A stretch of 64,000 bases of DNA from Candidatus Enterousia sp. GTDB lineage: Bacteria; Pseudomonadota; Alphaproteobacteria; Rs-D84. Where the stretch lies: the NCBI GenBank assembly GCA_045614665.1, contig JAZLDI010000005.1, positions 3,738-67,737 of the forward strand, in the 5' to 3' direction. Positions 1,790 through 43,940 of this stretch are shown one piece after another. Both the position numbers and the translations under genes were made by a program. Each line of letters opens with the position of its first letter. Within the stretch, counting starts at the first letter, position 1. Below the pieces are notes generated by a model. The model did not search any database. It was not told where the DNA came from and saw only the letters and a list, made by a program, of their open reading frames with translations.

Positions 1790-2731
1790 ATGAAAATGAA
1801 GAAATTTTTACCCATTTTATTGTTTGTTGGGGTTGTGCCTGCGTTTGCCAATGCGTTGACGTTGGATGATGCGCTACGTGCAACATATACCGCATGTGTT
1901 GGAATTGATGACGAATTGGCGGAATTAAAGCAAATGGCGGGTATAAATACCGCGATTACTGCGGTTGGTGCGGCGACGGGTGCCGGTGCAACGGTTGTTG
2001 GTGTGGTCAAAGCAGGTAAAGACCAAAAGGCAGAAGAGTTAGAGAAGATTTTGGAAGAAATTCGTGACCTATCTAAAAATCAATCTGAGATGACAGATGC
2101 TGAAATTTCGACATTTATGTCCGAATTTAATTTGGCATACGGTACCGCTGTTGCATCAGAGAAAGATGTGGAAACAGAATTAAATAAAACGACGAAACAA
2201 TCGAAAAATTTGGGTAACTGGCGTACGGGGTTGATGGCTGGATCTACGGCGACGAATCTGGCTGGTGCGATTATTGCCGGTAGCAATCAGGTAAAGGGTG
2301 ACCTGGAATCACAAATCAGTGCATGCAAGGATTCAATTAAAAATCTGCGCAATTCTATGATGCAGGCGCGTATGGATGGCACAGATATATCAGAGGCTCA
2401 GTCAATTGTTGATGCGTGTGGTGATTTTGAGTTTTCCGATTTGTCCAAGATTAACACACGTGGACGTGGTGCTGCGATATCGGCGGGCGTTGGTGCGGCG
2501 ACGGGACTTGCGGGTACAATAACATCTGCGGCATCGAATACGGATGCAACGCGAAATGATAATAGTGAATCTGGCAAGCAAAAAGAAAAGAATCTGAATA
2601 CAGCATCTAATATTTTGGCAGGGACGACGACTGCGGCATCTGTGACGGCGACTGTGTTTAATGCGACACAGATAAAGGCAATTAAACAGGTGGCTGAGGT
2701 AGCATCCAAATGCACAGGGGTACTGAAATGA
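1790..2731 (+). CDS. Exported protein of unknown function with Gly/Ala-rich glycine-zipper-like segments
   Basis: Signal peptide MKMKKFLPILLFVGVVPAFANA. Segments AVGAATGAGATVVGVV, GLMAGSTATNLAGAIIAGS and ISAGVGAATGLAGTITS. Stop overlaps the next start (ATGA). Confidence 0.75.
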   Translation: MKMKKFLPILLFVGVVPAFANALTLDDALRATYTACVGIDDELAELKQMAGINTAITAVGAATGAGATVVGVVKAGKDQKAEELEKILEEIRDLSKNQSEMTDAEISTFMSEFNLAYGTAVASEKDVETELNKTTKQSKNLGNWRTGLMAGSTATNLAGAIIAGSNQVKGDLESQISACKDSIKNLRNSMMQARMDGTDISEAQSIVDACGDFEFSDLSKINTRGRGAAISAGVGAATGLAGTITSAASNTDATRNDNSESGKQKEKNLNTASNILAGTTTAASVTATVFNATQIKAIKQVAEVASKCTGVLK

Positions 2732-5700
2732 TAAAGAAATTATTGGCGATATTTTTTGGGCTATTGATTGTTTGTCGTGCTGATGCGGCGGTGTATTTGC
2801 GTGTCAAAAATGGAAGTGCTTTAAAATCAGTTGTTGAAAAGCATTTTACGGATGTAGATGATCAAAAAGATGTTTTGGAGAAATATCGGGATTTGTTGGG
2901 TGATAACGGTGGTATGGGGTTAACCGCGGATGACTTGTGGACTGTTTGTAAGGCGGGTGGTCTGAAAATCAAAAATGATGACGGTAAACAAAAATGCCAG
3001 GCCTTTGTAAACGATTTAACGGCTTTGACCACAGTATATTATCAGGTTTGTGATGTAGATAAAGGTAAGTCGGGAATAACTGCACGTTGTATAGATACAG
3101 TGTTTGATGCGGCAACAGGTGATAAGCAAATAGAAGTTACGACGCGTGCAGCAATTAATTTGGCAAAAGCGCATGCAAAGAAAGCGTATAATGATACTGT
3201 TGAATGTCTGGATTTTGCGCGCACAAAATCAAATGATGATTTTATAGCCTGTAAATCTACGAAATCAAACAATACATATTATGAATATAGATTTTCTGAT
3301 GCCAAAGAATCGGGTGATTTAAAAGTGCAATATGGTGTAGAGGCGGGAATCTGTGCAATATATGGTTTGGACTATACAAGGGCAGGCTCGTCCAGTACGG
3401 GATCTGTTAGTGCGGGTATTGTAACTAGCACAGTATCGTGGCCGTCATATTGTCGTACCAAGGATGCCAACCTGTGTAAAAAGATAAATACGACAGCAAC
3501 AAGTTTTGGTTATAGTGTCAAATATAATAGTTCTTATGGTTGTGTTTTTGAAAGCAATGTGATTCGTGATGCCAAGGATATTAAAAATGACTATGGAAAT
3601 CCGCCAATTAATAATTGGGAGTTTTCAAACGGGGTTAAAAGTATTGAACTTTATGCAATGGGCAGTTTGGATGATACAATTAAAAAATATGTAAAAGCTA
3701 AGATTGCGCCAACACAAATAACCAATTTTAGTTGCGAAAAAAGCCATAAAAGATATGTTCGTGGCGGTTTTGAGGATTCAGAAGACGTTTTGACATGTTA
3801 TGTAAATGGAAAACGTGTTGATTTTGTGTTTGATGATTTGACACAGGCACGTACATGGATTGGGAACAAGAAAATTGCCGGTTCCAAACAGGCGCTGGAC
3901 TGCCTGACTGCAGATGGGGTTTTTGATGGTAAAAATTGTACCGCCGTTGGCAAAGATGTTTGTGATAAATTGCGTCTGTCAAATGATTCAAATTGTCCAG
4001 AGTGTAAAGATATTAAGTGGGATGCAGAACATAAAATGTGTGTTTTGGGTTCAGCTAAGAATGCTGCCAACTGGGGCAAGGCGATAAAAATTGGTACAGT
4101 GGCAGGTACCGCTGTTATTGCGGTTTTGGCAACCGTGTTCAGTGGTGGGACAGCTGCGCCGGGGGCATGGGGAATTGTTATGACGGTTGCAGATGTCGCG
4201 GTTGTTACTGGGGCCACCGTACAGGTCACATCAGAAGCCGTTATGACATTTGGTATTTTTGAACCGTTTGTTAAAAAGGCTAATTCATGTATTCAAAATA
4301 ATGATGTGGCTTGTGCCGAAGATGTTTTGATAAATGAATTAAATAAAATGCAGAGTTATTCTAAAGAATTTACGAGTCGAGAGGCGAGCGCCCTGGACGA
4401 AATATTTGTGAAATTGATTGGTATGTTGCCGGATGATTCAAGATTTTGGACAGATTTCTTTGGCAATCCAGATTTCTTTGATTGTACAGTTCCTAGCAAT
4501 CCGGAAACGTGTGTGGTAAAAGAAAATGCTCAATTTTGGCAGGTTGCCAGAACGGTTGGAAATGTGGCAATGATTGCAGGTGGTTTTTTGAAAATGTTTG
4601 CCACCGTGGGCAGTCAATTATCTAAAACACAAAATGCGGTTCGTGCACGGGTTGTCGATAATATGAGAAGTAAAAGTCCGCTGGCCAAAGTTGTAAATCC
4701 CGGTGGCAGTAATGGTGCATTAGTTTCAAATGATTTTATTAAAAACACGATGAAAATACCCGGTGTGGAAACAAACAGTGCGCTGGTGCGTTATCTGGGA
4801 CTAAAACCGGGAGATGTGTTCTGGCTGATGGACAATGGTCAGGTATTGCGGAATGTTTCTATGGTGCGAAATCTGTGGGGCTTGGTTCCAGTTACAGTTG
4901 GAACGGGTAATATCTTGTATCACAGCAATGATGATGCGGATTTCTTTGTGGTAAAGGGTGGTTATGAAAATACAACCCCAGGTGCTACAGGGCCTGAATC
5001 TCCGGTTGTGCCAGTGGATGATTCTGAAGAATCTGGCACAGGACCAGAAACCAACCCAGGTCCAGAAACAGGGCCAGAAACGGAACCAGAATTGCGGTTA
5101 GAACCAGGTGCCACACCGGTTGAAACTGGGTTGCAAAATCCGGAACGCAATATTAAACCATATGCGGTTGAAAAGCCAATGAACGTTGGTCTGATTGCAA
5201 CGGCGGCAGTTTTGGGCGCAGTTGGTTCAGGGGCTTTGATTGGAGGTTTAATATTAAACGATAAAGATGATGCAAAATTGGTTGATTTATCTGGTGCAAG
5301 AACCCAATTGGAGCGAGACTTGGAAACAGTATTGAATAATGCTAATGGATATTTCTTTGTTGGTGATGATACGCTGAAACTGCTGCCAATGCCGACGGAA
5401 AATAACACAAGTGCAAAAATTGTGAAAGTTGATAATAGTGTGGTTGTGGTTGTAGATTGGCGCGGTCACAATTTGCCTTTCTATATCAATGTGGATACTG
5501 GTTCGTGGGCGCCATTGTTGGGAATTGGAGAAAATGGTGGGTGGTTTAATGTATATCCGACTAAGGGGGCGCCAACGGTTATTGTTGAAATTCAAAATGT
5601 TTTGAATCAACAATTAAAACCGGCGACAGTTGTACAATTTGTTGGTGCAAATGTTTTGGGTTTACAATTTCCAAACATTGCCCCCGCGGCATATGAAATA

Positions 5701-5841
5701 ATCAATGCAGAATTCCCCAACGGAGTTGTAGAAACGTTTAACGGGGTATTTACTCCTGCTGATCAAATATTGTACAATAACAATTATCAACGAATTTTAA
5801 ATTTATTTAATACAGCCGCCCATCTGGGCGGTTTTTTATAG
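2728..5841 (+). CDS. Large exported/membrane protein of unknown function
   Basis: Start chosen at ATG 2728 (MIKKLLAIFFGLLIVCRADA signal), overlapping the upstream TGA. Cys-rich N-terminal half, hydrophobic Gly/Ala segments and a PETG-rich linker (GPETNPGPETGPETEPE). Confidence 0.8.
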   Translation: MIKKLLAIFFGLLIVCRADAAVYLRVKNGSALKSVVEKHFTDVDDQKDVLEKYRDLLGDNGGMGLTADDLWTVCKAGGLKIKNDDGKQKCQAFVNDLTALTTVYYQVCDVDKGKSGITARCIDTVFDAATGDKQIEVTTRAAINLAKAHAKKAYNDTVECLDFARTKSNDDFIACKSTKSNNTYYEYRFSDAKESGDLKVQYGVEAGICAIYGLDYTRAGSSSTGSVSAGIVTSTVSWPSYCRTKDANLCKKINTTATSFGYSVKYNSSYGCVFESNVIRDAKDIKNDYGNPPINNWEFSNGVKSIELYAMGSLDDTIKKYVKAKIAPTQITNFSCEKSHKRYVRGGFEDSEDVLTCYVNGKRVDFVFDDLTQARTWIGNKKIAGSKQALDCLTADGVFDGKNCTAVGKDVCDKLRLSNDSNCPECKDIKWDAEHKMCVLGSAKNAANWGKAIKIGTVAGTAVIAVLATVFSGGTAAPGAWGIVMTVADVAVVTGATVQVTSEAVMTFGIFEPFVKKANSCIQNNDVACAEDVLINELNKMQSYSKEFTSREASALDEIFVKLIGMLPDDSRFWTDFFGNPDFFDCTVPSNPETCVVKENAQFWQVARTVGNVAMIAGGFLKMFATVGSQLSKTQNAVRARVVDNMRSKSPLAKVVNPGGSNGALVSNDFIKNTMKIPGVETNSALVRYLGLKPGDVFWLMDNGQVLRNVSMVRNLWGLVPVTVGTGNILYHSNDDADFFVVKGGYENTTPGATGPESPVVPVDDSEESGTGPETNPGPETGPETEPELRLEPGATPVETGLQNPERNIKPYAVEKPMNVGLIATAAVLGAVGSGALIGGLILNDKDDAKLVDLSGARTQLERDLETVLNNANGYFFVGDDTLKLLPMPTENNTSAKIVKVDNSVVVVVDWRGHNLPFYINVDTGSWAPLLGIGENGGWFNVYPTKGAPTVIVEIQNVLNQQLKPATVVQFVGANVLGLQFPNIAPAAYEIINAEFPNGVVETFNGVFTPADQILYNNNYQRILNLFNTAAHLGGFL

Positions 5842-9848: not shown

Positions 9849-9977
9849 AACATATGATAATATAGTACAAAAATATAAAATGTCAACAAATATATAAAGT
9901 GTCAAAAGTATATAAATTTTGCGCTTTTAATAAATTCCTTTGGGTGATATAATGAAAAAGATAGAAGGGAAATATCT

Positions 9978-12815
9978 ATGAGAAAAATTGCAATTTTATC
10001 TATGTTAATCGCGGGTTTTATGTCGACATCTGATGCGGCAACGCCGACGCAGCGTCGCGGACGTACAACGGGCGCCACCACAACTAATGCGACCACCACA
10101 TCGGCAAAACCGGTCGCGGCGCGTGCGGCGACGGGTGCGCGAACGGCACCACGTGCGGCGGCACAGGCGACGACGTCAACATCGGCATCGAATACGGTGG
10201 TGCGTGGACGTTCGGCAACGCCAACCGCCACAACGGCCAAGCCCGTTGCGGCACGTGCCGGTACAACACAAAAAGTTATTGGTACCGGAACCAAAGTTTC
10301 GACTGCGGCCAAGAATGTCGTGGTAAGCGAGGAATGTCGCGCCAAGTATGAGGGCTGTATGGACGCGTTCTGTATGCTGGATAATGAAACCGGTGGCAGA
10401 TGTATTTGCAGTGATAAAAATGCTGAGTTTGATGCAATTTTGGCCGAAATTGAAAAATTAGATGAACAGTCTTATAAAATGGCGACCGTCGGTGTAGAAC
10501 GCCTGGAAATGGGTGATGATGCAGAGGCGGCGATGAGTATGGCAAAATCTGTGGCGGATTCTTTGACTGAAGATTCGAGCAAAGCCAATGTGTCAAAACG
10601 TCGTTCGCTGGATTTGTCTATGTGGGATACGGCGGTTGATTTCGACGAAGAAGTGGAAGTGTTTGGTGGTAATGAAGATTCGATTGAGGGGAAAGAGGGT
10701 GATGCTCTTTACGCGGCAGCGGCAAAGCTATGTGCAGCTCAGATTCCGGAATGTGGTGCAGAATTGACCCTAATGAAAACGTTGTATGGTCAAAAAATTC
10801 GTTCGGATTGTGCGGCGTATGAAAATACATTAAAACAACAGAAAAACGCATCGGCTAAGAAGTTGGCTGCTGCTGAGCAGGCGTTGCGCCAGACGGCACT
10901 GGACCAGTATCGCAGTGCGAATAAATATGATCTGGGGCAATGCACGGTAGAATTTAAAAAGTGTATGCAAAGTACTGGTGGCTGTGGTGAAGATTTTGCG
11001 GGGTGTGCATCTGTATCGGCGATGGACTCAACTAATACTCGCAAAAGTACTACACGTGGTGCAAAGGCGTATCAAATCAAGGGTGCATCAACAACTATTG
11101 AGATTTCTGCATCAACATATGACGCATTAGTTGCAAAAAAACCGTTGTGCGAATCGGTTACAAAGTCGTGTGTGAATGTTGCTGGTCAGGTTTGGGATAC
11201 CTTTTTGCGTGAGGTTGCGCCACAGTTAAAGTCAGCAGAACTTATTGCAGAGGATAATGCACGTCAAAATTGTATTGGAACAATTTCTGATTGTTTCCAG
11301 AAAGCGTGTAAAGATACAATCGATCCAAATGATCCGGATGGGTCGTATGATATGTGTTTGTCTCGTCCGGCAACGATGTTGAATTTGTGCAAGGTGCCAT
11401 TGAATGCATGTGGAATTGATGCGACAAATGAAACAACCGCCCAGGCATCTCAGATTTGGGATTTTGTGGTGGCACGTTTGGCGTCTATGCGTGTTGATGC
11501 TTGTACGACCCAGGTCAAGGAATGTATGCAATCCGAAGACAGATGTGGCGCGGATTACGCGGGCTGCGTGGGATTGGATACAGATGCCATTATTCGTATG
11601 TGTCCATATGATAAGTTGACCGGTTGTCAGCAGGTTTATGGTGAAAAAAATATTACCGGTGAACAGGTTTATGACAATATTGCTAATATGATTCAGGGGC
11701 TGATGCTGAATATAGACAATAGTTTGTATTCTGTGTGTCAGAATGCAGTTAATACGGCAATTATTAGTGTTTGTGGCAGTGCCGAAGAATGTAACGCGAT
11801 AAAGGTTGATTCAAACCTGGGGGCGCGTACGTTGAAATTAGAAATCTGTACGGCGGATGGTGAATGTTTTGAAAATATTGATATGATTCCATCTGAATAT
11901 TTGGGCAGTGGTGAAAATAAAGAAAAGAAGTTCAAAAGTAATATTGCGGGAATGTTGCCGTGGAATGATATTGATTTGGTTACGGAAACTGTTGACGATT
12001 CGACTGGTGCGGTTTTGCCAAATGAAAAACAAGACAACGGTATGACTTATTTGTCTTATACTGGGGATGGTGTGTCGAATGATCAATTGGCTGAAATTGC
12101 TAATATTGACAAAGTTATTGCCACGATGGTTTCGCAACTGGAATCAGACGAGAAAGTTAAACAGTGTATCAAGGGGCGCACGGTTCAGGGTATGGTTGTA
12201 AATGATTCCAGAGAAGACCTGAAGGGTGGGGCGCGTTTCCCGCAATTGGCAATGTCTGGGCGTTCTATGATTGCGAATGCGGTATTTGCCGCCGCACGTC
12301 AGAATTATTACAGTCAGTATGATAAACTGGTTGGGCAGGGGTTAAAGGAATTGTCAAAGGTTGCGGCAAAAATTGCTGAGTATGATGCGGTTGATGCTGC
12401 GCATAGCCAGGCCATGGAAGATCAGAAATATGCCGCTGAATCCCAAATTGCTGCTGCAGAGGCACAGAAAGAGGTTGTTGCTGCGGAGATGGAAGCCGAA
12501 AGGGTTAAAAACGAGGCAAAGGAAAAGGCGAACAAGATTAACAAGGATAATTGCTTGGATTCTGTTGGTGATAATCCGACGAAATCTGGGAATACGTCCA
12601 AGCAGGAGTTTTCTGTTAATAAGAAAGGTACGGTTTATGAAGAATGGGTGGAGGCGACATGGAATCCATCGACTAATACCTGTTCGCTTCTTAGAAGACA
12701 TCGTGATTGCAAGGATATCAAGTGTAATAGTGAGTCGTTCTTGTGTAAGCCAAGACGTTGTAAAGATGGTAAATGGGGTGAATGGGTCGAGACGCCTCAG
12801 GAAATCGTATTCTAA
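9978..12815 (+). CDS. Exported Cys-rich protein, paralog family member A (945 aa)
   Basis: Signal peptide, Thr/Ala/Arg-rich tract, CRAKYEGCMDAFCMLDNETGGRCICS module, and motifs GGCGEDFAGC and DRCGADYAGC. Clearly alignable with the 46495 protein. Confidence 0.85.
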   Translation: MRKIAILSMLIAGFMSTSDAATPTQRRGRTTGATTTNATTTSAKPVAARAATGARTAPRAAAQATTSTSASNTVVRGRSATPTATTAKPVAARAGTTQKVIGTGTKVSTAAKNVVVSEECRAKYEGCMDAFCMLDNETGGRCICSDKNAEFDAILAEIEKLDEQSYKMATVGVERLEMGDDAEAAMSMAKSVADSLTEDSSKANVSKRRSLDLSMWDTAVDFDEEVEVFGGNEDSIEGKEGDALYAAAAKLCAAQIPECGAELTLMKTLYGQKIRSDCAAYENTLKQQKNASAKKLAAAEQALRQTALDQYRSANKYDLGQCTVEFKKCMQSTGGCGEDFAGCASVSAMDSTNTRKSTTRGAKAYQIKGASTTIEISASTYDALVAKKPLCESVTKSCVNVAGQVWDTFLREVAPQLKSAELIAEDNARQNCIGTISDCFQKACKDTIDPNDPDGSYDMCLSRPATMLNLCKVPLNACGIDATNETTAQASQIWDFVVARLASMRVDACTTQVKECMQSEDRCGADYAGCVGLDTDAIIRMCPYDKLTGCQQVYGEKNITGEQVYDNIANMIQGLMLNIDNSLYSVCQNAVNTAIISVCGSAEECNAIKVDSNLGARTLKLEICTADGECFENIDMIPSEYLGSGENKEKKFKSNIAGMLPWNDIDLVTETVDDSTGAVLPNEKQDNGMTYLSYTGDGVSNDQLAEIANIDKVIATMVSQLESDEKVKQCIKGRTVQGMVVNDSREDLKGGARFPQLAMSGRSMIANAVFAAARQNYYSQYDKLVGQGLKELSKVAAKIAEYDAVDAAHSQAMEDQKYAAESQIAAAEAQKEVVAAEMEAERVKNEAKEKANKINKDNCLDSVGDNPTKSGNTSKQEFSVNKKGTVYEEWVEATWNPSTNTCSLLRRHRDCKDIKCNSESFLCKPRRCKDGKWGEWVETPQEIVF

Positions 12816-12816
12816 A

Positions 12817-12846
12817 CAAATCCCGCCGAATGGCGGGATTTTTTCT
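12817..12846. terminator. Bidirectional terminator
   Basis: AAATCCCGCC-gaat-GGCGGGATTTTTT. Confidence 0.85.
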
Positions 12847-13945: not shown

Positions 13946-16051
13946 ATGCGTTGTTTAAATTTAAAGAAGTTTTTTGGTGTATCAGTTGTTGGTGTTGGTA
14001 TTTTTACGTTCGTTGGGATGTGTTATGCGGCATCTAATCCGGGGCGTGCTGCATATGGTCGTGTGTCGGGTGCAACAACTGCGCGTATGCCGTCGATGCC
14101 AACATTGCCGGGTATGGCGGTTGGAAATACAACCCAGAATGTTCCGAGTGTGCCCAGTGTTCCTTCTGTCCCAAATGTTCCAGATACGCCGGATGTCCCA
14201 GATGTGCCAGATACACCAGATGTTCCAGATACGCCGGCCCCAGAATGTCCAGATGGTGGTGTGAAAAACTCAACTTATTCGGTTGAAAATTGTATGAATG
14301 ATGTTTTGCGTTGCGTAAATGGTGGTGCGTTACCGGGTGGTTTGAACGATTTGTTTAACGAAGATTTTCGCAATGCGATTGAAAATGGAATGGGTATTTG
14401 TTCGCTGGCGGTTGATAAGTGTATAAGTGATGTTCGAAAAGATTGTCGTAATGTTTATCGTTCAGCGGCGGATGTATGGATTGACTTTAACTCGCGTCGT
14501 GTTCAGCCTGAATATTACAGTTATGTCCTGCGTAAAACTGGGTTGACGCCGAATCAGGCTGAAAATACATGTCGCTTGTTGGACAAGAATACATATGGTT
14601 CGTCCTTTACGGCGGTGTCGAATGCTGGTAATGTGACCGCAGAATATAATAAAACGGTTGGTGCGTATAATGGTCAGCATGGAAATATCTTGGTTAAAAA
14701 TCAGCCTATGGGTGTAATGGTTAATGATGGTAATCCAGGGGTTGATGGTGCGCGTGGTCATTATGCGCGTTGGGATGCGGCATCGGCGACCTGTTTAGTG
14801 CGTGTGGCGGCATATAATAAAAACGAGCAGATTAAAAACAGTTGGTTGTTTGGTGCGGTTGGTAATGATCAGCCAGCTGAGGTTTGGCAGCCTGTTGGTG
14901 AAACTTTTACCTGTAACAAGGATTTATTTGGTTTTTCTCTTATGAATGATACTAATACCGTTGCAGTTGTTGGCGTTGGTGGTGGAACGTTGTTGGGAGC
15001 GGGGATTGGCGCGGTTGCTGGTCATGGCGATCAACGTTTTGATTGTGCTAATGAAAAACATCGTCAATTATTAGCAGATGAGTTACGTGCTGGGGCAAAT
15101 TCTGGGATACTGGGTGAATATATGTCCGCATCCAATAGAATTTCGGTGGTTGATAAAACTTTTACCGTGGCTCAATGCGAAGATGTTGTAAAACTTTATG
15201 ATACATATCGTCAGCTTAAAACAGCTGTTGATGGGTGTACTGGTCCGCGTACCCAGGTTCAGGTTCAACGTGAATTGTATGCTGTATGTCAAATTGATGC
15301 ATCGGCTGATAAATCAGATGAAGAAGTTTTAAAGGAATGCTTCCAGGGACTGGCAGCGCAGAATTCTGACTTTGAAATGTGCATAAACAATAATGCGACA
15401 TCTGTTGATGCGTGTGTGAAAATGGTTTTGGATTATCAGACGAAAAATGCATCGGCAAATCAGGAACGTTGTACAAAATTCCGTGCGATTAATCAGGCTA
15501 AATTGATGGGCGAAGGGATTTATTGTAATGAAAGTGAAGAATGTCATAGTTATCAGGATTTGGCCGGGGAATTGGCGCGTTTGGGGAATGTCTTTACAGA
15601 TGATATAAGTGATATGATTGAAAAGGGTATCGATGGAAATCGTGGTAAAACAACGGCGATTGGTGCCGCGTCTGGTGCGGCAGCGGGCGGTTTGGCCACG
15701 GCAATCACGGCATTTGTAGAAAAGAATAATATCAGTTGTCGTGTTGGTGATGGACTGGATACGATTGCGTACGGTAAATCGTATTCGTTGGGGAATTTGC
15801 GCGATTTTTATATCAAATGGAATTTGCAATTGCCGGATACGGTTGCGCCTACTGCGCATGTTACAGACTGTCAGTCTTGGAAGGATATGTGTGCGGCGTA
15901 TACGGATTTGAATTTGTGTAAAATGGCTCAATTCAATTATAAGCCGGCGGGTGCGCCGACTATAACGGCAATACCGTCTGCGTGCATCGTGTCGGGCAGT
16001 GTTTGTATCGAGAATTATCCAGTGGCAAAGTCATACGGTGCGTGTGAATAA
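13946..16051 (+). CDS. Exported Cys-rich protein with Pro-rich repeat and glycine-zipper segments (701 aa)
   Basis: Signal peptide. SVPSVPSVPNVPDTPDVPDVPDTPDVPDTP repeat. Segments VGVGGGTLLGAGIGAVAG and IGAASGAAAGGLATAI. Many paired Cys. Confidence 0.8.
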   Translation: MRCLNLKKFFGVSVVGVGIFTFVGMCYAASNPGRAAYGRVSGATTARMPSMPTLPGMAVGNTTQNVPSVPSVPSVPNVPDTPDVPDVPDTPDVPDTPAPECPDGGVKNSTYSVENCMNDVLRCVNGGALPGGLNDLFNEDFRNAIENGMGICSLAVDKCISDVRKDCRNVYRSAADVWIDFNSRRVQPEYYSYVLRKTGLTPNQAENTCRLLDKNTYGSSFTAVSNAGNVTAEYNKTVGAYNGQHGNILVKNQPMGVMVNDGNPGVDGARGHYARWDAASATCLVRVAAYNKNEQIKNSWLFGAVGNDQPAEVWQPVGETFTCNKDLFGFSLMNDTNTVAVVGVGGGTLLGAGIGAVAGHGDQRFDCANEKHRQLLADELRAGANSGILGEYMSASNRISVVDKTFTVAQCEDVVKLYDTYRQLKTAVDGCTGPRTQVQVQRELYAVCQIDASADKSDEEVLKECFQGLAAQNSDFEMCINNNATSVDACVKMVLDYQTKNASANQERCTKFRAINQAKLMGEGIYCNESEECHSYQDLAGELARLGNVFTDDISDMIEKGIDGNRGKTTAIGAASGAAAGGLATAITAFVEKNNISCRVGDGLDTIAYGKSYSLGNLRDFYIKWNLQLPDTVAPTAHVTDCQSWKDMCAAYTDLNLCKMAQFNYKPAGAPTITAIPSACIVSGSVCIENYPVAKSYGACE
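14138..14241 (+). repeat. Coding tandem repeat (9/18-nt periodicity) encoding (S/N/D)(V/T)P units
   Basis: ccagatacgccggatgtc / ccagatgtg / ccagatacaccagatgtt / ccagatacgccg units are visible in the DNA. Confidence 0.8.
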
Positions 16052-16772: not shown

Positions 16773-17639
16773 ATGAGAAAATATATATTATTTTTATTTG
16801 GTGCGATTGTGTTGGTGCCGGCGACTGGGGTTGCGGCATCCTCGTGTTCGCGGGCTAATCTGACACGGTGTTTAGATTCTGTGTGTGCGATAAATGTTTC
16901 GTCTAATCCGGCTGCCCGGTGTCAGTATTGTGGCACGGCCAGTGCGGGCGAAGCGCCGGCGGTTGGTATGCGCAGTGTGTCGGTTGGTGCGTCGGCTAAA
17001 TACAATATTTCGGACAAGGATTTGAAAAAAGCGCCAAAGGATCCGTCTAAGCGGTATTCTTGGGCGGCCGAACAGTGTTTGAAAAAGGTGGCGGGATGCA
17101 CGACCGATGATGTTGCTGATGTGTATGATGTTCTTATAGAGCAATCGTGCAAAGCGGCGGGGATTGCGGCCGAAATGAAGTCTCTTGCGGCGGATGCGGC
17201 GGTGGCGCGTACGTTGTCGTCTTGCTTGTCGGATGTTAAAGTTTGTGTTTTGTCAGATAAACGTTGTGGCGCGGATTTTTCAAATTGTAAATCAGATTCA
17301 GATTTTAATAAATATTTTGCGTCCTGTGGGGTTGATGCGACCGGTTGTGATGAATTTTTGTCGGATATTCGCGGTGATTTAATTGCGTCACGTGATAGTA
17401 TGATTGAGAATGCGGATGCGCTGGTTGATCGAATTGTTGTTGCATATCAAAATGCACGTGAAAAATTATTAGCAGGTGTCAAAGCGCAATGTGCGGATGG
17501 TGGGGCGCGTGATGCGTGTATTGAGACGGTTTGTGCAACAAATATGGTGAACAAGTGTGCGGTTGGATTCGATTCTGAACGTGCGTTGGCAACGCAAATG
17601 TGCAAGTTCTATGATGTTGCGTGTGATACATTGAAATAA
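16773..17639 (+). CDS. Exported Cys-rich protein, small family member (288 aa)
   Basis: Signal peptide. CSRANLTRCLDSVC module and DKRCGADFSNC motif. Confidence 0.8.
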   Translation: MRKYILFLFGAIVLVPATGVAASSCSRANLTRCLDSVCAINVSSNPAARCQYCGTASAGEAPAVGMRSVSVGASAKYNISDKDLKKAPKDPSKRYSWAAEQCLKKVAGCTTDDVADVYDVLIEQSCKAAGIAAEMKSLAADAAVARTLSSCLSDVKVCVLSDKRCGADFSNCKSDSDFNKYFASCGVDATGCDEFLSDIRGDLIASRDSMIENADALVDRIVVAYQNAREKLLAGVKAQCADGGARDACIETVCATNMVNKCAVGFDSERALATQMCKFYDVACDTLK

Positions 17640-17655: not shown

Positions 17656-18915
17656 ATGATAAAGTGTTTAGATTTTTTTAAATATTTTGTTCCGGTGGCA
17701 ATGGTGTTTGTGGGTATTAATGCGGATGCGGCGGTGGCAAAGCGTGGAACGGTGTCCCGTGCCAAGGTGACTGCGGCGGCGCGTGCGCCAGTTGTTGCCA
17801 CGACGGCCACCGTGACACAGGTAACGTCAGAACCGGAAGCTGTTGAAGAAGTTGCGGTACCTGAAGAAACTTTTGAGTTTGAGGATAGAACGGGGCAATT
17901 TGATGATGCGATTGGTGCCACAAAGATGTCGGGTGGGGTGGATGATGATGAACTGACAGAGATGATACGTCGCCAACGTGCGGCGGCGGATGCGTCTGAT
18001 GCAACAGAAACAGTGGCGCGTGCGGCCAACGCGATGTCTGTGTCGGGACAAAATGCGTGCGATATGGGGTTGCGTAAATGCATGCAGGCGAAATGTGGTG
18101 CAGATTTTGCAAAGTGTGCTGGTGATACGGATACGGTCTGGGGCGACAAAATGGATGCGTGTCGCCGTGATTTAAAATGCAGTGGTGTGGAATATGCGGC
18201 GTTTGCACCAGAAATTAAGGCAGATCGTGATGCAAATGCAGAATTGGTAAATTACAATGCGATTATAAGCTGTGGAAATAAGTATAATTCGTGTATTTTG
18301 ACAGAATGTGGTGCGACGTTTTCAAAGTGTTTGGGGAAATCTTATGGTGATGCGGCAATTGCCAAATGTAAAAAAATTCAAAATGAATGTATGGGTTTGG
18401 ATAATGGTTTGGCGTCGCGTATGATGAATGTTTTTGCCGGTGTTCGCCAAGATGCAGAAAAGCAGGTTCAGCGTGATGAACAGCGTCTTTATGATTTGCG
18501 TGATGAAATGGAAAAAGTGTGTCTTTCAATGGGTGCGATGTTCGATCAGCGTTCGCTGGATTGTGTTTATACTGTTAATTTCTTTGCGAATAATTCAACC
18601 ACACCATATGCGTCGAAAAAGGCGTATGCGGGTGGTGTGTTCAGTTGCGATCCGGGCTGGTTTGGTATAGATGTTACAACGTTCAAAGAAAATGCGTATC
18701 GTTTGACACGTGAACAAAAATCTGCGTCGTCGGCAATGTTGGGGTCGGGTATTGGTATGGCGGCCGGTGTGATTACATCAGGTGCGATTGATCGGGCACT
18801 GGGGACACAAAAAGCGAAGAAAGAGTTGGACCAGGCCAAGGCGGATGATGAAAAATGGTATGGTGGTGCTGTCGTCACTGATGAGCAAGAATCACAGGAA
18901 GAAGTTTCAGAATAA
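17656..18915 (+). CDS. Exported Cys-rich protein, small family member with C-terminal glycine-zipper segment (419 aa)
   Basis: Signal peptide. Basic AVAKRGTVSRAKVTAAARAP tract. Motifs RKCMQAKCGADFAKC and LTECGATFSKC. Segment LGSGIGMAAGVITSGAI. Confidence 0.8.
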   Translation: MIKCLDFFKYFVPVAMVFVGINADAAVAKRGTVSRAKVTAAARAPVVATTATVTQVTSEPEAVEEVAVPEETFEFEDRTGQFDDAIGATKMSGGVDDDELTEMIRRQRAAADASDATETVARAANAMSVSGQNACDMGLRKCMQAKCGADFAKCAGDTDTVWGDKMDACRRDLKCSGVEYAAFAPEIKADRDANAELVNYNAIISCGNKYNSCILTECGATFSKCLGKSYGDAAIAKCKKIQNECMGLDNGLASRMMNVFAGVRQDAEKQVQRDEQRLYDLRDEMEKVCLSMGAMFDQRSLDCVYTVNFFANNSTTPYASKKAYAGGVFSCDPGWFGIDVTTFKENAYRLTREQKSASSAMLGSGIGMAAGVITSGAIDRALGTQKAKKELDQAKADDEKWYGGAVVTDEQESQEEVSE

Positions 18916-18938: not shown

Positions 18939-21900
18939 ATGAAAAAGATATTATTTGGTATTTTTGCAGTTGTATTTTCAATGCCAGCGATGGGGCTAGA
19001 TGTTTCAGGGACGGTGGTTGATGAAACTGGTGCGCCGATAACGGGTGCGACGGTGTATGCGCCAGGTACAACCAAAGGGTTTACGATTTATAAAAGCGAT
19101 GGTAGTTTTAAGGAAACGATTGATGTTGAAGCAGATACGTATTTAGAGATTTCTTTTACTGGTTGTGCCGAACAAAATTTCAAGGCGTCAGAATTAAACG
19201 GTAAAAGAATTCAATTAAATTGTGCCGAAGAAATAGAAAAGGTTGTAACTGTTGGTAACTTTAAAACCCGTGATTGTACATCAGATGAATTAGATAAGGC
19301 AAATGCCACCAGTGGGCGTTGGGTCTTGCCCGATGATGGGGGGCGGGCATATTGCAAACCGTCTAAATGTAAGACAGGATTTAAAGATAATGGTACCATG
19401 TGTGTGTCCCGTAATGGTGATGCTTGTACGGGAAAAGAACTGAACAAATGGGCCAAGAAAGCGACGTCTGGAATCTATATGTATGTAGATGGCGTGGAAC
19501 GTTGTGATGCGACCGCGTGTCATGATGGATTCAAGTTGTCTGGTGCCCAATGTATACCGGAATGTGATGCCGATGTTAATAATGGTATTGCGGAACAAAT
19601 GCCGATTGGTGGAAAATGTTATCCAACCGTATGTGTGGAACCGCGTTGGATGTTGAATGGCACCGGTACGCGTGCTAAGTGTGTTGAGCAAAAGTGCTCT
19701 ATTGAGAATGGTAAAGGTGCGTGGAAAAAGAACACAAATAATATCTGGGAATGTGCAGTTGTTTCTTGTAATAAAAATTTTGAAGAAGTGGACGGTCAAT
19801 GTGTGTCCAATAAGTGTGGTTGTGGCCAGGTTTTTGTGCCATCAACTGGTCTGTGTCGCGATAAAACAGCGACAGAGAAAAAATGTACGCGCGATACAAA
19901 GCCCCAGTTGCCATCTAATGCAAAAACGGCGGAAATGGTTTGTGATGCCAATGGGCGTGAATATTGCAAGATTGCAACAAATGGATGTGTCGATAATTAT
20001 TATTTGATTGAATCTGAAAATAAATGTAAGCCAAAGGAAGGTACCCCCTGTGTTATTGTTGGATTCGAAGGTGAATTGATTGGACGCCCCCAGACTGAAT
20101 ATGAATTTGTTGATGGTGCGTTAAAGTGCGTGGTAAAAAAATGTAATGACAGGGACTATGAACCTAACCGGGAAAGGACGGCGTGTGTTCAGACGTCTGG
20201 AGATTGTGATACAGAAGATGAAAATGCGCTGGGGCGTGGCAAGTTGAAGAATGGTATATGTGTTATTCAAAAATGTAAAACAGGTTTTAAAATTCAAGAT
20301 AATAGTTGTGTGACACGTAGTGGTGATGTCTGTACACGTGATGAATTAAAGAAATATCCCAATGCCACATCTGGGTATTATGATTATTCAAATGGTACAG
20401 AGCGTTGTATTAATTTGAAATGCAAAGAAGGATTTAAGCCCAATGAAGATGCCACGGAATGTATTGCAAAATTGAAAAAATGCACCTCAGAACAGCAGCA
20501 GGCATTAACAAATGCAAAGTCGTGGGGATTGCAGGATGGAACTGAAAAATGTGTCGCATTGGAATGTAAATGTGGGTATGTCTTGGAAAATGGTCAGTGC
20601 CGTGCAAAAACGGCGGCAGAGAAGAATTGTACGCGTGATACTAAACCCCAATTGCCAGACAATGCAACGGTGGCAGAAATGGTTTGTGATGCCAATGGGC
20701 GTGAATATTGCAAGATTGCAAAAGATGGCTGTAATGATGGTTTTACCCGTAATGAGGCGAAAAATACTTGTGACAGCAAGGTTGGCCAACGTTGTATCGA
20801 TACAGAGTTCAATGGTGAATTGATTGGAAATCCGAACAAGGAATATGAATATGTGGGTGGTGTTTTAAAGTGTGTTGTGACAAAATGTAATGACAAGGAT
20901 TATAAGCCAAGTGAAGACAGAAAGACTTGTGTAAAAGTTTCGGGTGCATGTACAACCGATGATCCATATGCAGATGAATCCAAGGCAGGGACATTGAAAA
21001 AGGGCAAGTGTGTGCCAAATGCATGTCAAAATGGATATCGTGTCAAAGATAATAAATGTACATTAACTAAATGTAAGTGCGGTTATCGTGAAGATGGAAA
21101 TGATTGCGTAAAACGTGAAGCCGACGAACAATGTACATCACAGACGTCGCCGGTGGCACCAGCACACGCAAAATATGGAAAGTATTCATGTCCGAATGGT
21201 GAAAATGGCAAAGAAGTTTGTCAGATTTCAGAAGACTCTTGCGAGGATGGATATCGTGCAGATTTAACCAAAAATCGTTGCCTTAGTTTGGATGGATTCG
21301 ATTGTGGTGATGTTGCAGACAAGCCTGTGGATGAAAATGCGCTGAAGTGGTCGTATGCGGTGTCGGCGGGAAAAACTGAATGTCGTATCAGTCTGTGTAA
21401 AGACGATTGGGAACCGCGTGAAAATGGTACAAAGTGTGTCAAGGTCTCGGGGGCGTGTCTGGCAGCTGATTTGCAGTTGATTGATAAAGCTAGCGCTGGT
21501 GAAATTCGAAATGGGAAATGTTTTGCCACAGATTGTGAAGATAATTATAGTCCAAACAAACAGGGAATTTGTGAACGTAACCTGTGTCCGTGTGGTCAAA
21601 AGTTGGGCGAAGATGATGTCTGTGTTGATAAAACAGAGGAAGACAAGGTTTGTACTATTGCCAATGCAACCAAGGCAGCATTGACGTGCGAGAAGGATAA
21701 AGAGGTTTGCCGTGTTGTTGAATGTGCCAAAGATTATAAAACAAATTCTAAGAAAAATCGTTGTGAATCCGTGAAAAATGATCAGTGTGCTTTTGACGGG
21801 GATACCAAAGAGTTTGTTAAAACGGCACGCTGGCGTGAACGGAATAAAGAAATGGAATGTGTTATAACAGCCTGTACGGATGGGTATACGGTTGATACGG

Positions 21901-23705
21901 CTAAAAATATTTGTATCGTAAGCGAAGGACCATGTTCAGAAGCACAGGTAAAACAGATTGAAAATGCAACCAAGGGTGAGTTGAAAAAGGGCAAATGTTT
22001 TGTTACAGAATGTGTTCCTGGGATGGAACCCGTTGATAACAAGTGTGTTAAAATTGCGGGTGATTGTAAAAATATGCCGGAAAATGCCAAGTCCGCACAT
22101 CGCGAATTTGTGGCGGAATCTAATGAAGAGATTTGTATCATTGACGCCTGTGACAAGGAATACAAGGTCAGTGATGATAAACAATCGTGTATAATTGTTC
22201 CGGGGCTGTCACGTGAAGAATCCAAGCAACGTATAGAAGAGGCACAGCAAAAATATGATGCAGCCAAGGCCAATGAACAATCCTTGGGGAACCGTATGTT
22301 GGGGGCGGCGACAATGGGCTCTATGGGAATTGGTGGTATGATGGTTGCGTCGTCGTTGGCGGAACAAAACGCCGATGCGGATGCCGAATTGGATATGGCG
22401 GCATATCTGGCAACATTTAAATGTGACTATGGTGCGGGACTGAATATCCGTGGCGGTCAGGTTAATGTAGAACTGCCCGGGGCATCGGAATTAATACCAC
22501 TTTATTCCGAATATGTTACTTTGGCAAATGACGTTAAGGCGCGTAAAAAACAATTAGGATTAAAGACTGGAATTGAATCCGAGAAGATTTTGGATTCTGC
22601 GACAACGGGTCTGTACGATGATGTTGGTATTGGTATTTCATCGGGTGCGTATGCATCATTGGCGCGTGCATTACAAGACCCAAATGGTACGGATGCCAAG
22701 ATGTGGGCCGAACAGAAAGAAAAAACCGCCCAGAACCTGAAAACGGGGGCCATAACCGCCGGTGTTGGTGCCGCGGTGGGTCTGGTCGGGAATATCATCA
22801 GTTCAGAAGTGTTTAAAAATAAAATGAAAAATTTGAAATCGGTGTCTATCTTGCAAGAAAAGGTAGATGCAATACCTGAAACACATGTGGCGCAAAGGCA
22901 ATCGTGTCCGTCGAACAGCCAGGGGACATATCCAGATTGTGACTGTGGGCCAAATGCGATATATAATGGGAGCACGAATAAATGTGACACGTGTCCAGAA
23001 AATCAAAAGGCACAAGATAACCAATGTGGTTGTTGGACCGCGCCAAATACTGTAAAGGATGGTGATAAATGCGTCGAGCCAAAACAAGAGTGTAAGTATG
23101 AATGTGAAGAACCGACCGCAGAGAATAATTTGGTGCGTAACCCAAATTGTACCTGTGGTTGCAAAGATGGGTTTGACTATAAGGATAAAAAATGTCAGCC
23201 ACAGACACCACCGCAAGACTCGATAACTGTTACCGTTGTAGAAGAAGTAAGAAGAGAAACTGCATTGAACGAGGCGACTTTAAAAGAAGCGATCTTTGAT
23301 TTTGGAAAAAGTACATTGACCAGTGTTGCAAAAACAGCGTTGGATGATTTTGCAAAAAATCTGAAAGAAATCGATAAAGTTACAAAATGTGATATAGAGG
23401 TTTCTGGATTTACAGACAGGGCCGGAAATTCTGATTATAATATGACACTGTCACTGGAGCGTGCTACTAGTGTAAAAAACCACTTGGCTTCGGCTTTGAA
23501 TAAGAATGGTATAACAAATACAATGAAGACCAATGGGTATGGCGAAACAAAATGTTTTTGTGTCGCGGGCAGTTTAAGTGGCTGGAAAGCATGTAACGGT
23601 AAAAAGGCGGGTGATGTCGCAAGGGGATATGGTTATCCGCCATGTCGTGTTGTTACAATAAAGGCACTGTGTGAAACAGAACAGCAAGTTGAGACCCCAC
23701 AATAA
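18939..23705 (+). CDS. Giant exported Cys-repeat protein with CarboxypepD_reg-like N-terminal domain and OmpA-like C-terminal domain (1588 aa)
   Basis: N-terminus VSGTVVDETGAPITGATVYAPGTTKGFTIYKSDGSF. About 1000 aa of C-x-C/GFK-type repeats. Hydrophobic Gly-rich segments. C-terminus FDFGKSTL...IEVSGFTDRAGNSDYNMTLSLERATSV is an OmpA_C-type peptidoglycan-binding motif. Confidence 0.85.
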   Translation: MKKILFGIFAVVFSMPAMGLDVSGTVVDETGAPITGATVYAPGTTKGFTIYKSDGSFKETIDVEADTYLEISFTGCAEQNFKASELNGKRIQLNCAEEIEKVVTVGNFKTRDCTSDELDKANATSGRWVLPDDGGRAYCKPSKCKTGFKDNGTMCVSRNGDACTGKELNKWAKKATSGIYMYVDGVERCDATACHDGFKLSGAQCIPECDADVNNGIAEQMPIGGKCYPTVCVEPRWMLNGTGTRAKCVEQKCSIENGKGAWKKNTNNIWECAVVSCNKNFEEVDGQCVSNKCGCGQVFVPSTGLCRDKTATEKKCTRDTKPQLPSNAKTAEMVCDANGREYCKIATNGCVDNYYLIESENKCKPKEGTPCVIVGFEGELIGRPQTEYEFVDGALKCVVKKCNDRDYEPNRERTACVQTSGDCDTEDENALGRGKLKNGICVIQKCKTGFKIQDNSCVTRSGDVCTRDELKKYPNATSGYYDYSNGTERCINLKCKEGFKPNEDATECIAKLKKCTSEQQQALTNAKSWGLQDGTEKCVALECKCGYVLENGQCRAKTAAEKNCTRDTKPQLPDNATVAEMVCDANGREYCKIAKDGCNDGFTRNEAKNTCDSKVGQRCIDTEFNGELIGNPNKEYEYVGGVLKCVVTKCNDKDYKPSEDRKTCVKVSGACTTDDPYADESKAGTLKKGKCVPNACQNGYRVKDNKCTLTKCKCGYREDGNDCVKREADEQCTSQTSPVAPAHAKYGKYSCPNGENGKEVCQISEDSCEDGYRADLTKNRCLSLDGFDCGDVADKPVDENALKWSYAVSAGKTECRISLCKDDWEPRENGTKCVKVSGACLAADLQLIDKASAGEIRNGKCFATDCEDNYSPNKQGICERNLCPCGQKLGEDDVCVDKTEEDKVCTIANATKAALTCEKDKEVCRVVECAKDYKTNSKKNRCESVKNDQCAFDGDTKEFVKTARWRERNKEMECVITACTDGYTVDTAKNICIVSEGPCSEAQVKQIENATKGELKKGKCFVTECVPGMEPVDNKCVKIAGDCKNMPENAKSAHREFVAESNEEICIIDACDKEYKVSDDKQSCIIVPGLSREESKQRIEEAQQKYDAAKANEQSLGNRMLGAATMGSMGIGGMMVASSLAEQNADADAELDMAAYLATFKCDYGAGLNIRGGQVNVELPGASELIPLYSEYVTLANDVKARKKQLGLKTGIESEKILDSATTGLYDDVGIGISSGAYASLARALQDPNGTDAKMWAEQKEKTAQNLKTGAITAGVGAAVGLVGNIISSEVFKNKMKNLKSVSILQEKVDAIPETHVAQRQSCPSNSQGTYPDCDCGPNAIYNGSTNKCDTCPENQKAQDNQCGCWTAPNTVKDGDKCVEPKQECKYECEEPTAENNLVRNPNCTCGCKDGFDYKDKKCQPQTPPQDSITVTVVEEVRRETALNEATLKEAIFDFGKSTLTSVAKTALDDFAKNLKEIDKVTKCDIEVSGFTDRAGNSDYNMTLSLERATSVKNHLASALNKNGITNTMKTNGYGETKCFCVAGSLSGWKACNGKKAGDVARGYGYPPCRVVTIKALCETEQQVETPQ
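19932..19977 (+). repeat. Internal duplication core, copy 1 (46 nt identical to 20676-20721)
   Basis: gaaatggtttgtgatgccaatgggcgtgaatattgcaagattgcaa. Offset of 744 nt, equal to a 248-aa repeat unit. Confidence 0.9.
20676..20721 (+). repeat. Internal duplication core, copy 2
   Basis: Identical 46-mer. Flanking protein sequence is also repeated (EKxCTRDTKPQLPxNA..AEMVCDANGREYCKIA). Confidence 0.9.
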
Positions 23706-26700: not shown

Positions 26701-27502
26701 TGAATCCCGGTTCAACGGTATGGCAAATCCGATTTTAAATTTGGCGTCTAATGTTATGACAACGGGGGCGGAATATAAATTTGGAAATTGGTCGTTTGGT
26801 GGTCGTGGTTATTCGGGGCTGATTACGGATGAAAGTTTGCTGGAAAATGATCCGACGATTTCGGCACAATTTATGCCGGGGCAATTGGGACGTGTTGCGG
26901 GTGCGGAAAGTCATATTGCATACAACATGGATAAATTTGGATTTTCAGCGTCTATTGGTGCGGCACGTGAAAGTGATACATTGCTGGGGGCGGTGACGGA
27001 TGGTTTATTGGATTTGGGTGCGGGTGACACGACTTATGTTGATGTTGTATCGCATTATAATTTGTCTGATACAATTGGTTTCACCGCACGTGCAACATTT
27101 GCACGCACGGCATCGGATGCATCGGGTGCAATGGTGTTGGGGTTGACGGATATTGAATCAAATTCGTTTGCATTTGGTGCAAATATTGGAAACTTTGAAT
27201 TTACAGTGGCAAGGCCCCTGGCAATTACAGACGGTGCGTTGCAATACGCACACGCCGAATATGATGTAGTAGAGGTTGCCAAAGGGCAATATGACCTGGT
27301 GGTGCGTGATGCGCATGTTGCCGATTTGTCGTTGCATCCGGATGAACGTGAGGTTCGTTTTACCGCAACATATCGGCAAAAACTGGGTGAATTTACCGAT
27401 GGTGCGCTGGGGATGATTTATCGCGTAAATCCAAATCACACCGATGATTTTGGGAATGAATCTATATTTATGATGAAGTTGTCGCATCGTTTGGGTATAT
27501 AA
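23771..27502 (+). CDS. Exported ankyrin-repeat protein with large passenger and C-terminal beta-barrel-like domain (1243 aa)
   Basis: Signal peptide. Ankyrin-like LLAAARNADINQVQILVNNGADINYVDATGLSLVCTAL. Subtilase-like remnants (GATAEMAAASAAGAVAS, YGYGLINLERAM). About the last 350 aa show an alternating beta-strand pattern. Confidence 0.8.
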   Translation: MKYIRILFLALFVFPFGAHAAGGQNEFMVAAQLLAAARNADINQVQILVNNGADINYVDATGLSLVCTALMNNDTRAAQILQMYGADASQCDRQIKKYNNRTKPKPTGGLFSGLSSVQSMTLAAAGAAVVVGGLLLLTDVLDPGNDNDNGVVSGGDRPGSGGNTGGGNATDVLTIPYSPAYLGINGYINTSNEKYLANLKTWNPTEGGIRQADFNYFRPSVAPGISNFKNDGILLPVQNYLLMMHGYSAFANGYLGQLIFRSTSNNYNPLPMENSASGGEPVTVGMITANGLNPTGAAARTSADTVGILVASGAGAGAATMTKDKYLNYNNPTDGVLGTEKTGFDLSGTGTAMNPFASAYDGALIKIVAGWTGERGAYEYDEQDFIAGDFWGFVPNGRVGVFKTGNGQAFVNIDTPTDGAVLGTSSGENSIGVGDTVVLNGVTYTMSLAADAALTNPTITVNGTTYKLPAESTMLRGVCTSDVAGACDDISDIAIYKGTDGYFYVNTTGGTGPDAVWVVNNNNIYAQKELQDVDFKNFEALYAAKSDSNVLANVSVIQSSRGLDYVKMSDMPQLIDVLNANPVDVYVGLVNDIYDRDDTQNTSQGIYANQLLGGYNANSPILVMPAGEFAYGYGAGKSLSVLDATFENYAPVIYPNLEHLFMTVVAVQHKTGTDAATSIENYGNGTGSSFGPLTLSSWTDADGTVYKSRKCGIAGMGLNGIDPWCFAAAGATAEMAAASAAGAVASVKAAFADADMSNAELFTLLALTADGAYLGADDDGNRFSTETLANYLRGMYELPPEYYEDTLDADAYLAAFKEVYGYGLINLERAMTPNKKLYFFDGNKIVSGDKNAYWGAATNTSVRASSVLNLSGARVSTAVFDVLESVDGQMRLPRVWENEFALGNTTKRGLYMGDVLGEFSTRRVAPSATKIGDMSLSMAVSEREYNDYMGGLDNLTLAYSCDNWNINASYQHHFTDGESRFNGMANPILNLASNVMTTGAEYKFGNWSFGGRGYSGLITDESLLENDPTISAQFMPGQLGRVAGAESHIAYNMDKFGFSASIGAARESDTLLGAVTDGLLDLGAGDTTYVDVVSHYNLSDTIGFTARATFARTASDASGAMVLGLTDIESNSFAFGANIGNFEFTVARPLAITDGALQYAHAEYDVVEVAKGQYDLVVRDAHVADLSLHPDEREVRFTATYRQKLGEFTDGALGMIYRVNPNHTDDFGNESIFMMKLSHRLGI

Positions 27503-40513: not shown

Positions 40514-40541
40514 AAAAAAATCCCCAGATGGGGATTTTTAT
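40514..40541. terminator. Second hairpin, serving the convergent minus-strand operon
   Basis: AAAAAAATCCCC-agat-GGGGATTTTTA. Confidence 0.75.
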
Positions 40542-43911: not shown

Positions 43912-43940
43912 AAAAAATCCCGCTGTGTGCGGGATTTTTG
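43912..43940 (-). terminator. Terminator after infA
   Basis: AAAAAATCCCGC-tgtgt-GCGGGATTTTT (symmetric). Confidence 0.8.

Follow-up and report, generated by a model that had tools for sequence, protein, structure and literature searches.

A lineage-restricted family of predicted exported, cysteine-rich helical proteins in Candidatus Enterousia, with a possible role in the cell envelope

A stretch of 64,000 nucleotides (nt) from a Candidatus Enterousia sp. genome (assembly GCA_045614665.1, contig JAZLDI010000005.1, positions 3,738 to 67,737 of the forward strand), referred to here as the window, contains six open reading frames (ORFs), designated A to F, that encode Cys-rich and putatively exported proteins and together account for 12,162 nt, that is, 19.0% of the window. 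A preliminary description had listed them as an expanded, unrecognised family of six exported paralogs; its coordinates, strands and nucleotide total are correct, and every peptide string that it quoted occurs verbatim in the ORFs. The prototype, A (nt 9978-12815, + strand), encodes 945 amino acids (aa) with 38 Cys. Further downstream lie B (16773-17639, +), a predicted all-alpha protein of 288 aa and 20 Cys, and, after a gap of 16 nt, C (17656-18915, +), whose 419 aa comprise a putative signal peptide, a basic N-terminal motif, two variant 4-Cys modules (aa 135-154 and 206-225) and a conserved glycine-zipper segment (aa 358-382, nt 18727-18801, +). D (41300-43861, -; 853 aa, 29 Cys) is the most divergent of the long proteins, and E (44322-46478, +; 718 aa), which has a conserved glycine-zipper segment of its own (nt 46302-46427, +), is again separated by 16 nt from F (46495-48972, +; 825 aa). 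The internal start codons selected for E and F agree with the N-termini of their orthologues. Judged by eye, a Sec-type signal peptide, with Lys or Arg, a hydrophobic core and an A-x-A-like site, stands at the start of all six ORFs, and the sequences themselves thus support the view that the proteins are Cys-rich and probably exported. The basic Ser/Thr/Ala/Arg tract formerly ascribed to all of them is nevertheless missing from B, where the Cys-rich domain begins straight after the signal peptide.

Four of the proteins, A, D, E and F, carry near the N-terminus a five-Cys module of the form C-x-x-[AK]-[FY]-x-x-CMD-x-FC-x(7-9)-C-x-CS (hereafter the CMD module), which reads CRAKYEGCMDAFCMLDNETGGRCICS in A (nt 10335-10412, +) and lies at nt 43355-43432 (-) in D, 44601-44678 (+) in E and 46663-46740 (+) in F. 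The module had been thought common to all members, but a search of the six ORFs showed it to be absent from B and C. Within it, [YF]x[GAT]CMD[QAD]FC is the signature with the highest conservation. The long family is therefore delimited here by a signal peptide, the CMD module and an all-alpha core in which about 15 Cys are invariant, those of the pattern C-x6-C-x6-CG-x5-C included, column frequencies being taken over 418 aligned relatives; it comprises A, D, E and F, and leaves out B and C, both of which are devoid of the CMD module. The pattern C-x6-C-x6-CG-x5-C forms a 4-Cys module whose two copies in A (nt 10941-11006, aa 322-343, and nt 11502-11567, aa 509-530, both +) constitute an internal repeat also found within E and F (copy 1 against copy 2 by hhalign: 93%, E 3e-7). 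The region of the second copy is the one matched by B and C, and B can also be aligned to the first copy with its Cys in register. The whole repeat unit, C-x6-C ... C ... C-x6-C-x(4-6)-CG-x5-C, occurs once in B, twice in A, E and F, and as variant copies in C. Moreover, the repeated CG motifs of the preliminary description are real: CG-x-[DNT]-[FYW]-x-x-C is present at nine places among the 38 ORFs of the window, all of them in A to F, against a mean of 0.012 and a maximum of 1 in shuffled proteins.

The four long proteins are unambiguous paralogs, with pairwise BLASTP values from 1e-14 to 1e-100 and hhalign probabilities of 99.9-100% for D and E against A. The closest pair is formed by A and F (1e-100, 32% identity over 752 aa), with E-F at 1e-50, A-E at 1e-48 and A-D at 1e-22. 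The collinear pair recognised earlier by the strings ANKYDLG.C.VEFKKCM and MRVDACT..VK.C does exist; however, the partner of A in this pair is F, and not D, the fourth member of the list.

The cysteines are the most conserved part of these proteins. In A, 35 of 38 Cys are at least 90% conserved in 90 homologues, at a mean column identity of 43%, and all 20 Cys of B are invariant across 80 orthologues. The hallmark of the family is the C-x6-C pair, heptad-spaced and located on long predicted helices with nearly all of its cysteines invariant; a hand count from the Cys positions gave 12 such pairs in A (about 1.5 expected), 10 in F, eight in E, six in B, five in C and four in D. AlphaFold models of A and B (pLDDT, the predicted local distance difference test score, 71 and 79, respectively) are nearly all-alpha, with long helices running through the Cys-rich core at pLDDT 70-90. 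Thus, A seems to be built of a signal peptide (aa 1-20), a basic tract rich in Thr, Ala and Arg (aa 21-114; residues 13-113 are disordered in the model), an all-alpha and putatively Cys-stapled core of very long helices (aa 115-610), a mixed region, a long helical hairpin (aa 757-863) and a small C-terminal beta domain (aa 865-945), while the model of B is all-alpha. CxxC is nearly absent, with one instance in B and none in the core of A, which argues against metal clusters, and no conserved His lies beside the Cys residues. A by-eye comparison indicates that D lacks equivalents of C329 and C391 of A, and also of C444 and C460, while C322 and C398 are retained; this paired loss fits antiparallel helices stapled by 322-398 and 329-391 bonds.

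No known family or fold was found to account for these proteins, as the word unrecognised in the preliminary description had implied. Pfam and NCBIfam returned no family for the six proteins, for 80 orthologues of B or for 10 diverse relatives, and scans of the neighbouring proteins gave no meaningful family either. Sequence-profile searches of the PDB with three family alignments gave nothing below E 0.3, and Foldseek comparisons of the A model with the PDB and BFVD, and of the B model with the PDB, gave a best E of 0.035, with template-modelling (TM) scores below 0.1 for long alignments and no significant match; short matches resembling the PP7 coat protein in the C-terminal beta domain of A were dropped as non-significant. 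No paper describing the proteins was found in the literature. The IMG/VR viral contigs contained no relatives, and a phage or mobile origin was rejected on this basis. Relatives are abundant in gut metagenome-assembled genomes (MAGs). Clustering of homologues at 90% identity gave 1099 clusters for A, 727 for B and 966 for C, and those with a source name are all hypothetical proteins of alphaproteobacterial MAGs. An exhaustive HMMER search with the four-paralog core against 1.84 billion representatives returned 876 clusters, 438 of them at E<=1e-30; here too, matches with a source name are all hypothetical proteins of alphaproteobacterial or proteobacterial gut MAGs, and the low-ranking matches sampled come from Rickettsiales or Proteobacteria MAGs. 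The pattern [YF]x[GAT]CMD[QAD]FC alone recovered at least 576 confirmed relatives from the GTDB species genomes; the 79 loci kept from that scan come from gut MAGs whose titles read Candidatus Enterousia, Alphaproteobacteria, proteobacterium or Rickettsiales, plus two loci on a single contig titled Muribaculaceae. A to F are real genes of a lineage-restricted group with a clear Cys signature and a predicted all-alpha structure without known relatives.

Candidatus Enterousia, to which the window belongs, and its order, Rs-D84, consist of uncultured bacteria widespread in the guts of ruminants, horses, chickens, mice, termites and humans, with genomes of 0.75-1.0 Mb (megabases), no respiration and incomplete glycolysis; they appear unable to live alone and are presumed to depend on partners, and their hypothetical membrane-bound proteins have been mentioned and not analysed (PMC12306168). 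With those genome sizes, the six genes would represent about 1.2-1.6% of a genome (PMC12306168), and their 19% share of the window thus reflects local clustering. The RpoA of the window is 99% identical to the RpoA of Enterousia MAGs, and the surrounding genes (rpoA, grpE, tpiA, a SurA/PpiD-like gene, clpPX, nrdDG, PBP1 and a Pmp-repeat autotransporter) are those of the chromosome of a diderm anaerobe. Three arrangements recur across divergent MAGs. In the first, rpoA is followed by A, an opposite-strand membrane protein and then G (13946-16051, +; 701 aa, 28 Cys), which always lies two genes downstream of A. In the second, B and C are always followed by O (18939-23705, +), a predicted exported protein of 1588 aa with 113 Cys (7.1%), and then by a 1243-aa ankyrin and probable beta-barrel protein, and this block stays intact even when relocated or inverted. 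In the third, which adjoins clpPX, D and the gene always found immediately downstream of it on the same strand, H (40538-41242, -; 234 aa, 9 Cys, probably exported), face E and F on the other strand. Each protein forms a conserved orthologue group within which identity is 40-70%, as against 86-99% for RpoA, ClpP and ClpX in the same comparisons, and this divergence, together with the fixed gene order, points to ancient, non-redundant and fast-evolving components. The term expanded was therefore overstated: the long paralogs represent four ancient syntenic orthologue groups across the order without a recent burst, and a triplication of the A type occurs in one genome, the rumen MAG RUG653, in which three tandem, divergent A-type copies (31-40% identical to A) lie downstream of rpoA (locus L040, 4133-12613).

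Both ends of the proteins carry conserved motifs. A motif located after the signal peptide, R...R.G...A.RMP[ST][LM], is common to the orthologues of E, G and C, three otherwise different families of putatively exported proteins. Its Arg and Pro are at least 90% conserved in 50 orthologues of C, R47-M48-P49 is invariant in seven aligned orthologues of G, and the motif reads ARMPTL in E (nt 44433-44450, +) and ARMP in G (nt 14081-14092, +). It may act as a sorting, tethering or assembly signal, and no described equivalent is known to us. E- and F-type proteins also have a conserved extreme C-terminus, as in ...C.EIESCEDINM, ...VEKCENIQM and ...SESCTDIQM, with E itself ending in CQEIESCEDINM (nt 46428-46475), which could function as a recognition motif; A-type proteins end in ...QF or IVF.

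Considering these features together, we tentatively favour, at somewhat less than even confidence, the view that A to F form a superfamily specific to this lineage, whose members are Sec-exported helical rods, stapled by disulfides and belonging to the cell envelope or surface. After cleavage of the signal peptide, the mature protein would present a flexible basic N-terminal tail with the short conserved motif R...R.G...A.RMPT, followed by a rigid core of long helices in which C-x6-C heptad pairs on neighbouring antiparallel helices would form intrachain disulfide staples. The C-terminal end would be variable: C and E would carry there a glycine-zipper segment that associates with membranes, A and F a small beta domain. 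The long paralogs, together with the short proteins B and C that share their module, could then serve as non-redundant structural parts of the envelope or of a surface layer, anchored or organised by the glycine zippers and by the co-located O. This giant Cys-rich protein has a CarboxypepD_reg-like N-terminus, Cys-rich repeats, glycine-rich segments and a C-terminal OmpA peptidoglycan-binding domain; its repeats, many of the type C..C..G[FY]......C, matched no Pfam family. Such a view fits the signal peptides, the invariant heptad-spaced Cys, the glycine-zipper tails and the OmpA-domain neighbour; the glycine-zipper tails are conserved in both C and E, and B and C precede the OmpA-domain protein and the probable beta-barrel protein. 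The preliminary description had likewise suggested an envelope, coat or adhesin function and possible disulfide cross-linking, which is a plausible proposal for these sequences.

Several known systems offer analogies, not memberships. Chlamydial OmcB and OmcA are thought to stiffen the envelope through disulfides, and OmcB has a basic region before its Cys-rich part. A to F would resemble them as predicted exported, Cys-rich and probably envelope-located proteins of an obligately host-dependent bacterium with a reduced genome, and a Pmp-repeat autotransporter is encoded near A to F too. However, no match to Pfam Chlam_OMP6 or Chlam_OMP3 was found (E<=1 for the six proteins, E<=0.01 for the 10 diverse relatives), A and B are predicted to be all-alpha with C-x6-C heptads, and the organism is an alphaproteobacterium that retains genes for peptidoglycan synthesis. 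The Helicobacter Hcp proteins, which are secreted or periplasmic, consist of helical Sel1-like repeats, each with a disulfide that staples paired helices, and A to F could be exported helical repeat proteins with comparable staples. Nevertheless, their repeat unit comprises about 100 aa and 7 Cys, compared with about 36 aa and 2 Cys in Hcp, and neither a Pfam or NCBIfam match of the Sel1/TPR type nor Foldseek similarity to solved Hcp structures was observed. In the twin-Cx3C and twin-Cx9C proteins of the CHCH type, Cys pairs lie whole helical turns apart and two staples join antiparallel helices, as may also be the case here; but the spacing is C-x6-C, many hairpins would follow one another within a chain of 288-945 aa, A to F are bacterial and putatively exported, whereas CHCH proteins are mitochondrial, and no Pfam CHCH match was obtained. 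Finally, C, E, G and O share G-x3-G-rich conserved segments near the C-terminus with glycine-zipper outer-membrane proteins such as the Rickettsia 17-kDa antigen, YiaD and SlyB, whose zippers link them to the outer membrane, although C and E have no lipobox, and so are not lipoproteins, and the segment represents a minor part of each protein.

Some observations weigh against envelope rods stapled by disulfides. DsbB and quinones provide the usual route of periplasmic disulfide formation, and this route may be missing from a lineage reported to have no respiratory chains; the main weakness of the proposal is that so many cysteines would have to be oxidised by a strict fermenter that lacks quinone-linked respiration and any obvious means of doing so. 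The number of Cys in the mature proteins is even in A, B, E and F and odd in C and D, and the paired Cys loss mentioned above is a hint and not a proof, because it is confined to a single clade, that of D, and amounts to one evolutionary event. The glycine-zipper segments fall under the Pfam and NCBIfam thresholds, E matching YiaD_Gzip_OmpA at E 0.16 and 11.6 bits with a cut-off of 175. Moreover, A orthologues are 40-60% identical where RpoA is 86-92% identical, a pattern that also fits proteins interacting with a host or partner.

This pattern leads to the possibility, rather unlikely in our judgement, that the proteins are surface adhesins or partner-interaction proteins that attach the cell to another microbe, a protist or the host mucosa, with the basic tail binding polyanions and the rods projecting binding ends. 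An obligately symbiotic or parasitic lifestyle that requires contact with other cells has been inferred for the lineage (PMC12306168), and the proteins diverge about 4-5 times faster than RpoA, ClpP and ClpX, with their Cys scaffold preserved. The tandem triplication of an A-type gene, the long and variable C-terminal extensions of the C orthologues and the Pmp-repeat autotransporter encoded nearby could be read in the same way. However, copy number is stable and orthology is one-to-one across the order without signs of cassette-like variation, no known adhesin domain was detected with Pfam, NCBIfam or Foldseek, and no partner organism is known. Adhesion overlaps with a structural role as envelope rods and does not exclude it.

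A separate question concerns the unity of the group, since B and C share with the long proteins only the Cys module of about 100-130 aa. B matches A by profile-profile comparison at 77% (E 2e-5), residues 98-202 of B lying on 428-562 of A with nine Cys in register, C matches B at 64-76% (E 2e-5 to 7e-5) over up to 116 columns with about 11 Cys in register, and C matches A at 47-75%. The links of B and C to the long proteins span 63-116 columns, with Cys in register, at probabilities below the usual bar of 90-95%. The likeness could therefore be convergent, a short Cys motif having arisen independently or spread by shuffling among two or three unrelated families; the modest probabilities (47-77%) and a hidden Markov model (HMM) of A orthologues and long paralogs, which did not detect B or C at E<=10, speak for this. 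Nevertheless, convergence seems unlikely given up to 9-11 Cys in register across 104-116 columns, the CG-x-D-F-x-x-C core common to both groups, and their identical all-alpha prediction and lineage restriction. A wider superfamily built on the Cys repeat unit, which adds B and C to the long family, is thus moderately supported by the alignments, and the earlier claim of six paralogs stands for A, D, E and F, with B and C as probable remote relatives. In addition, G was considered as a seventh paralog and ruled out for the long family by hhalign probabilities of 1-2% against A; it is weakly linked to C through FxC..FG and the glycine-zipper segment (58-80%).

It is very improbable that the proteins are effectors or toxins, whether secreted into the medium or passed into a partner cell. 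The effectors of parasites often include Cys-rich secreted proteins, and the putative signal peptides, large size, lack of known domains and C-terminal ...ESCEDINM, as a conceivable recognition signal, would agree with such a role; but retention in the envelope is favoured by the glycine-zipper segments and by the neighbouring protein with its OmpA domain, Foldseek revealed no fold resembling that of a toxin, no dedicated secretion-system genes are adjacent, and the gene set is ancient and syntenic across the order. It is also very unlikely that the cysteines remain in reduced form in the anoxic gut, as ligands of metals or sulfur species or as a redox buffer, since, although oxidative folding is not guaranteed in a strict fermenter without respiratory chains and the cysteines are invariant, their C-x6-C spacing on helices, the near absence of CxxC and CxxCH, the lack of conserved His next to Cys and the lack of Fe-S, zinc-finger or cytochrome matches in Pfam and NCBIfam all oppose it.

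A bolder extension of the envelope-rod proposal, which we consider doubtful, is that A to F, O, G and the glycine-zipper proteins make up a new envelope or attachment apparatus that grips and exploits another cell, with RMPT and ESCEDINM as new sorting or assembly signals and oxidative folding by an unconventional route that does not require respiration. In any case, A to F belong to a real, undescribed and lineage-restricted family with a possible structural function. Lineage-specific hypothetical families are common in MAGs; still, six or more large proteins, strictly conserved and putatively exported, with an unmatched predicted fold represent a major investment for a genome of about 850-900 genes, which makes them prime candidates for what makes the Enterousia envelope or its partner contact work. 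They may provide the best access to the cell surface of this abundant gut lineage and could be targeted by metaproteomics, by antibodies or sorting coupled to fluorescence in situ hybridization (FISH), and by cryo-electron tomography, and [YF]x[GAT]CMD[QAD]FC provides a specific sequence marker for the lineage. A biochemical puzzle is also posed by 20-38 invariant cysteines per putatively exported protein in a strict fermenter without respiratory chains.

Regarding regulatory features and neighbouring genes, a terminator-like hairpin with a 10-bp (base pair) stem and a T-run follows the stop codon of A (12818-12841, +), two others follow F (48976-49001 and 49022-49047, +), and one is also found after G. 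A tandem repeat of period 18-19 and about 2.8 copies (9867-9917), ACAAATATATAAAATGTCA, lies about 60 nt upstream of the start codon of A, overlaps strong promoter-like hexamers of the divergent gene and may have a regulatory role. Between D and E there is a small unlisted gene, infA, for translation initiation factor IF-1 (about 43948-44190, -), with a bidirectional terminator of 11-bp stem at 43913-43939; this hairpin was ruled out as a D/E intergenic regulatory element because it is the terminator of minus-strand infA. The 1243-aa putatively exported protein conserved downstream of O (23771-27502, +) has a weak ankyrin match at its N-terminus, and its C-terminal 300 aa or so, with alternating hydrophobic strands, look like an autotransporter or beta-barrel and matched no family. 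The autotransporter with Chlamydia-type Pmp repeats (35171-38440, +) contains just one Cys, and Cys-richness is thus specific to certain exported families and not a property of the whole proteome.

Much of the window codes for envelope proteins without an assigned family, among them two putatively exported hypothetical proteins of 313 and 1043 aa (1790-2731 and 2710-5841, +), in which segments rich in glycine and alanine resemble zippers or transmembrane stretches; neither matched a family. A gene of the choloylglycine (bile-salt) hydrolase family (32304-33383, -) fits the gut habitat, and a PBP1c-type penicillin-binding protein lies beside a fragment of a bacterial alpha-2-macroglobulin (bMG10 domain) that runs off the end of the window (60725-63998, -). 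The guanine-cytosine (GC) skew is positive in every 2-kb (kilobase) window, reaching 0.33 and falling near zero over blocks of minus-strand genes, and most large genes are on the plus strand, which is consistent with the leading strand of one replichore.

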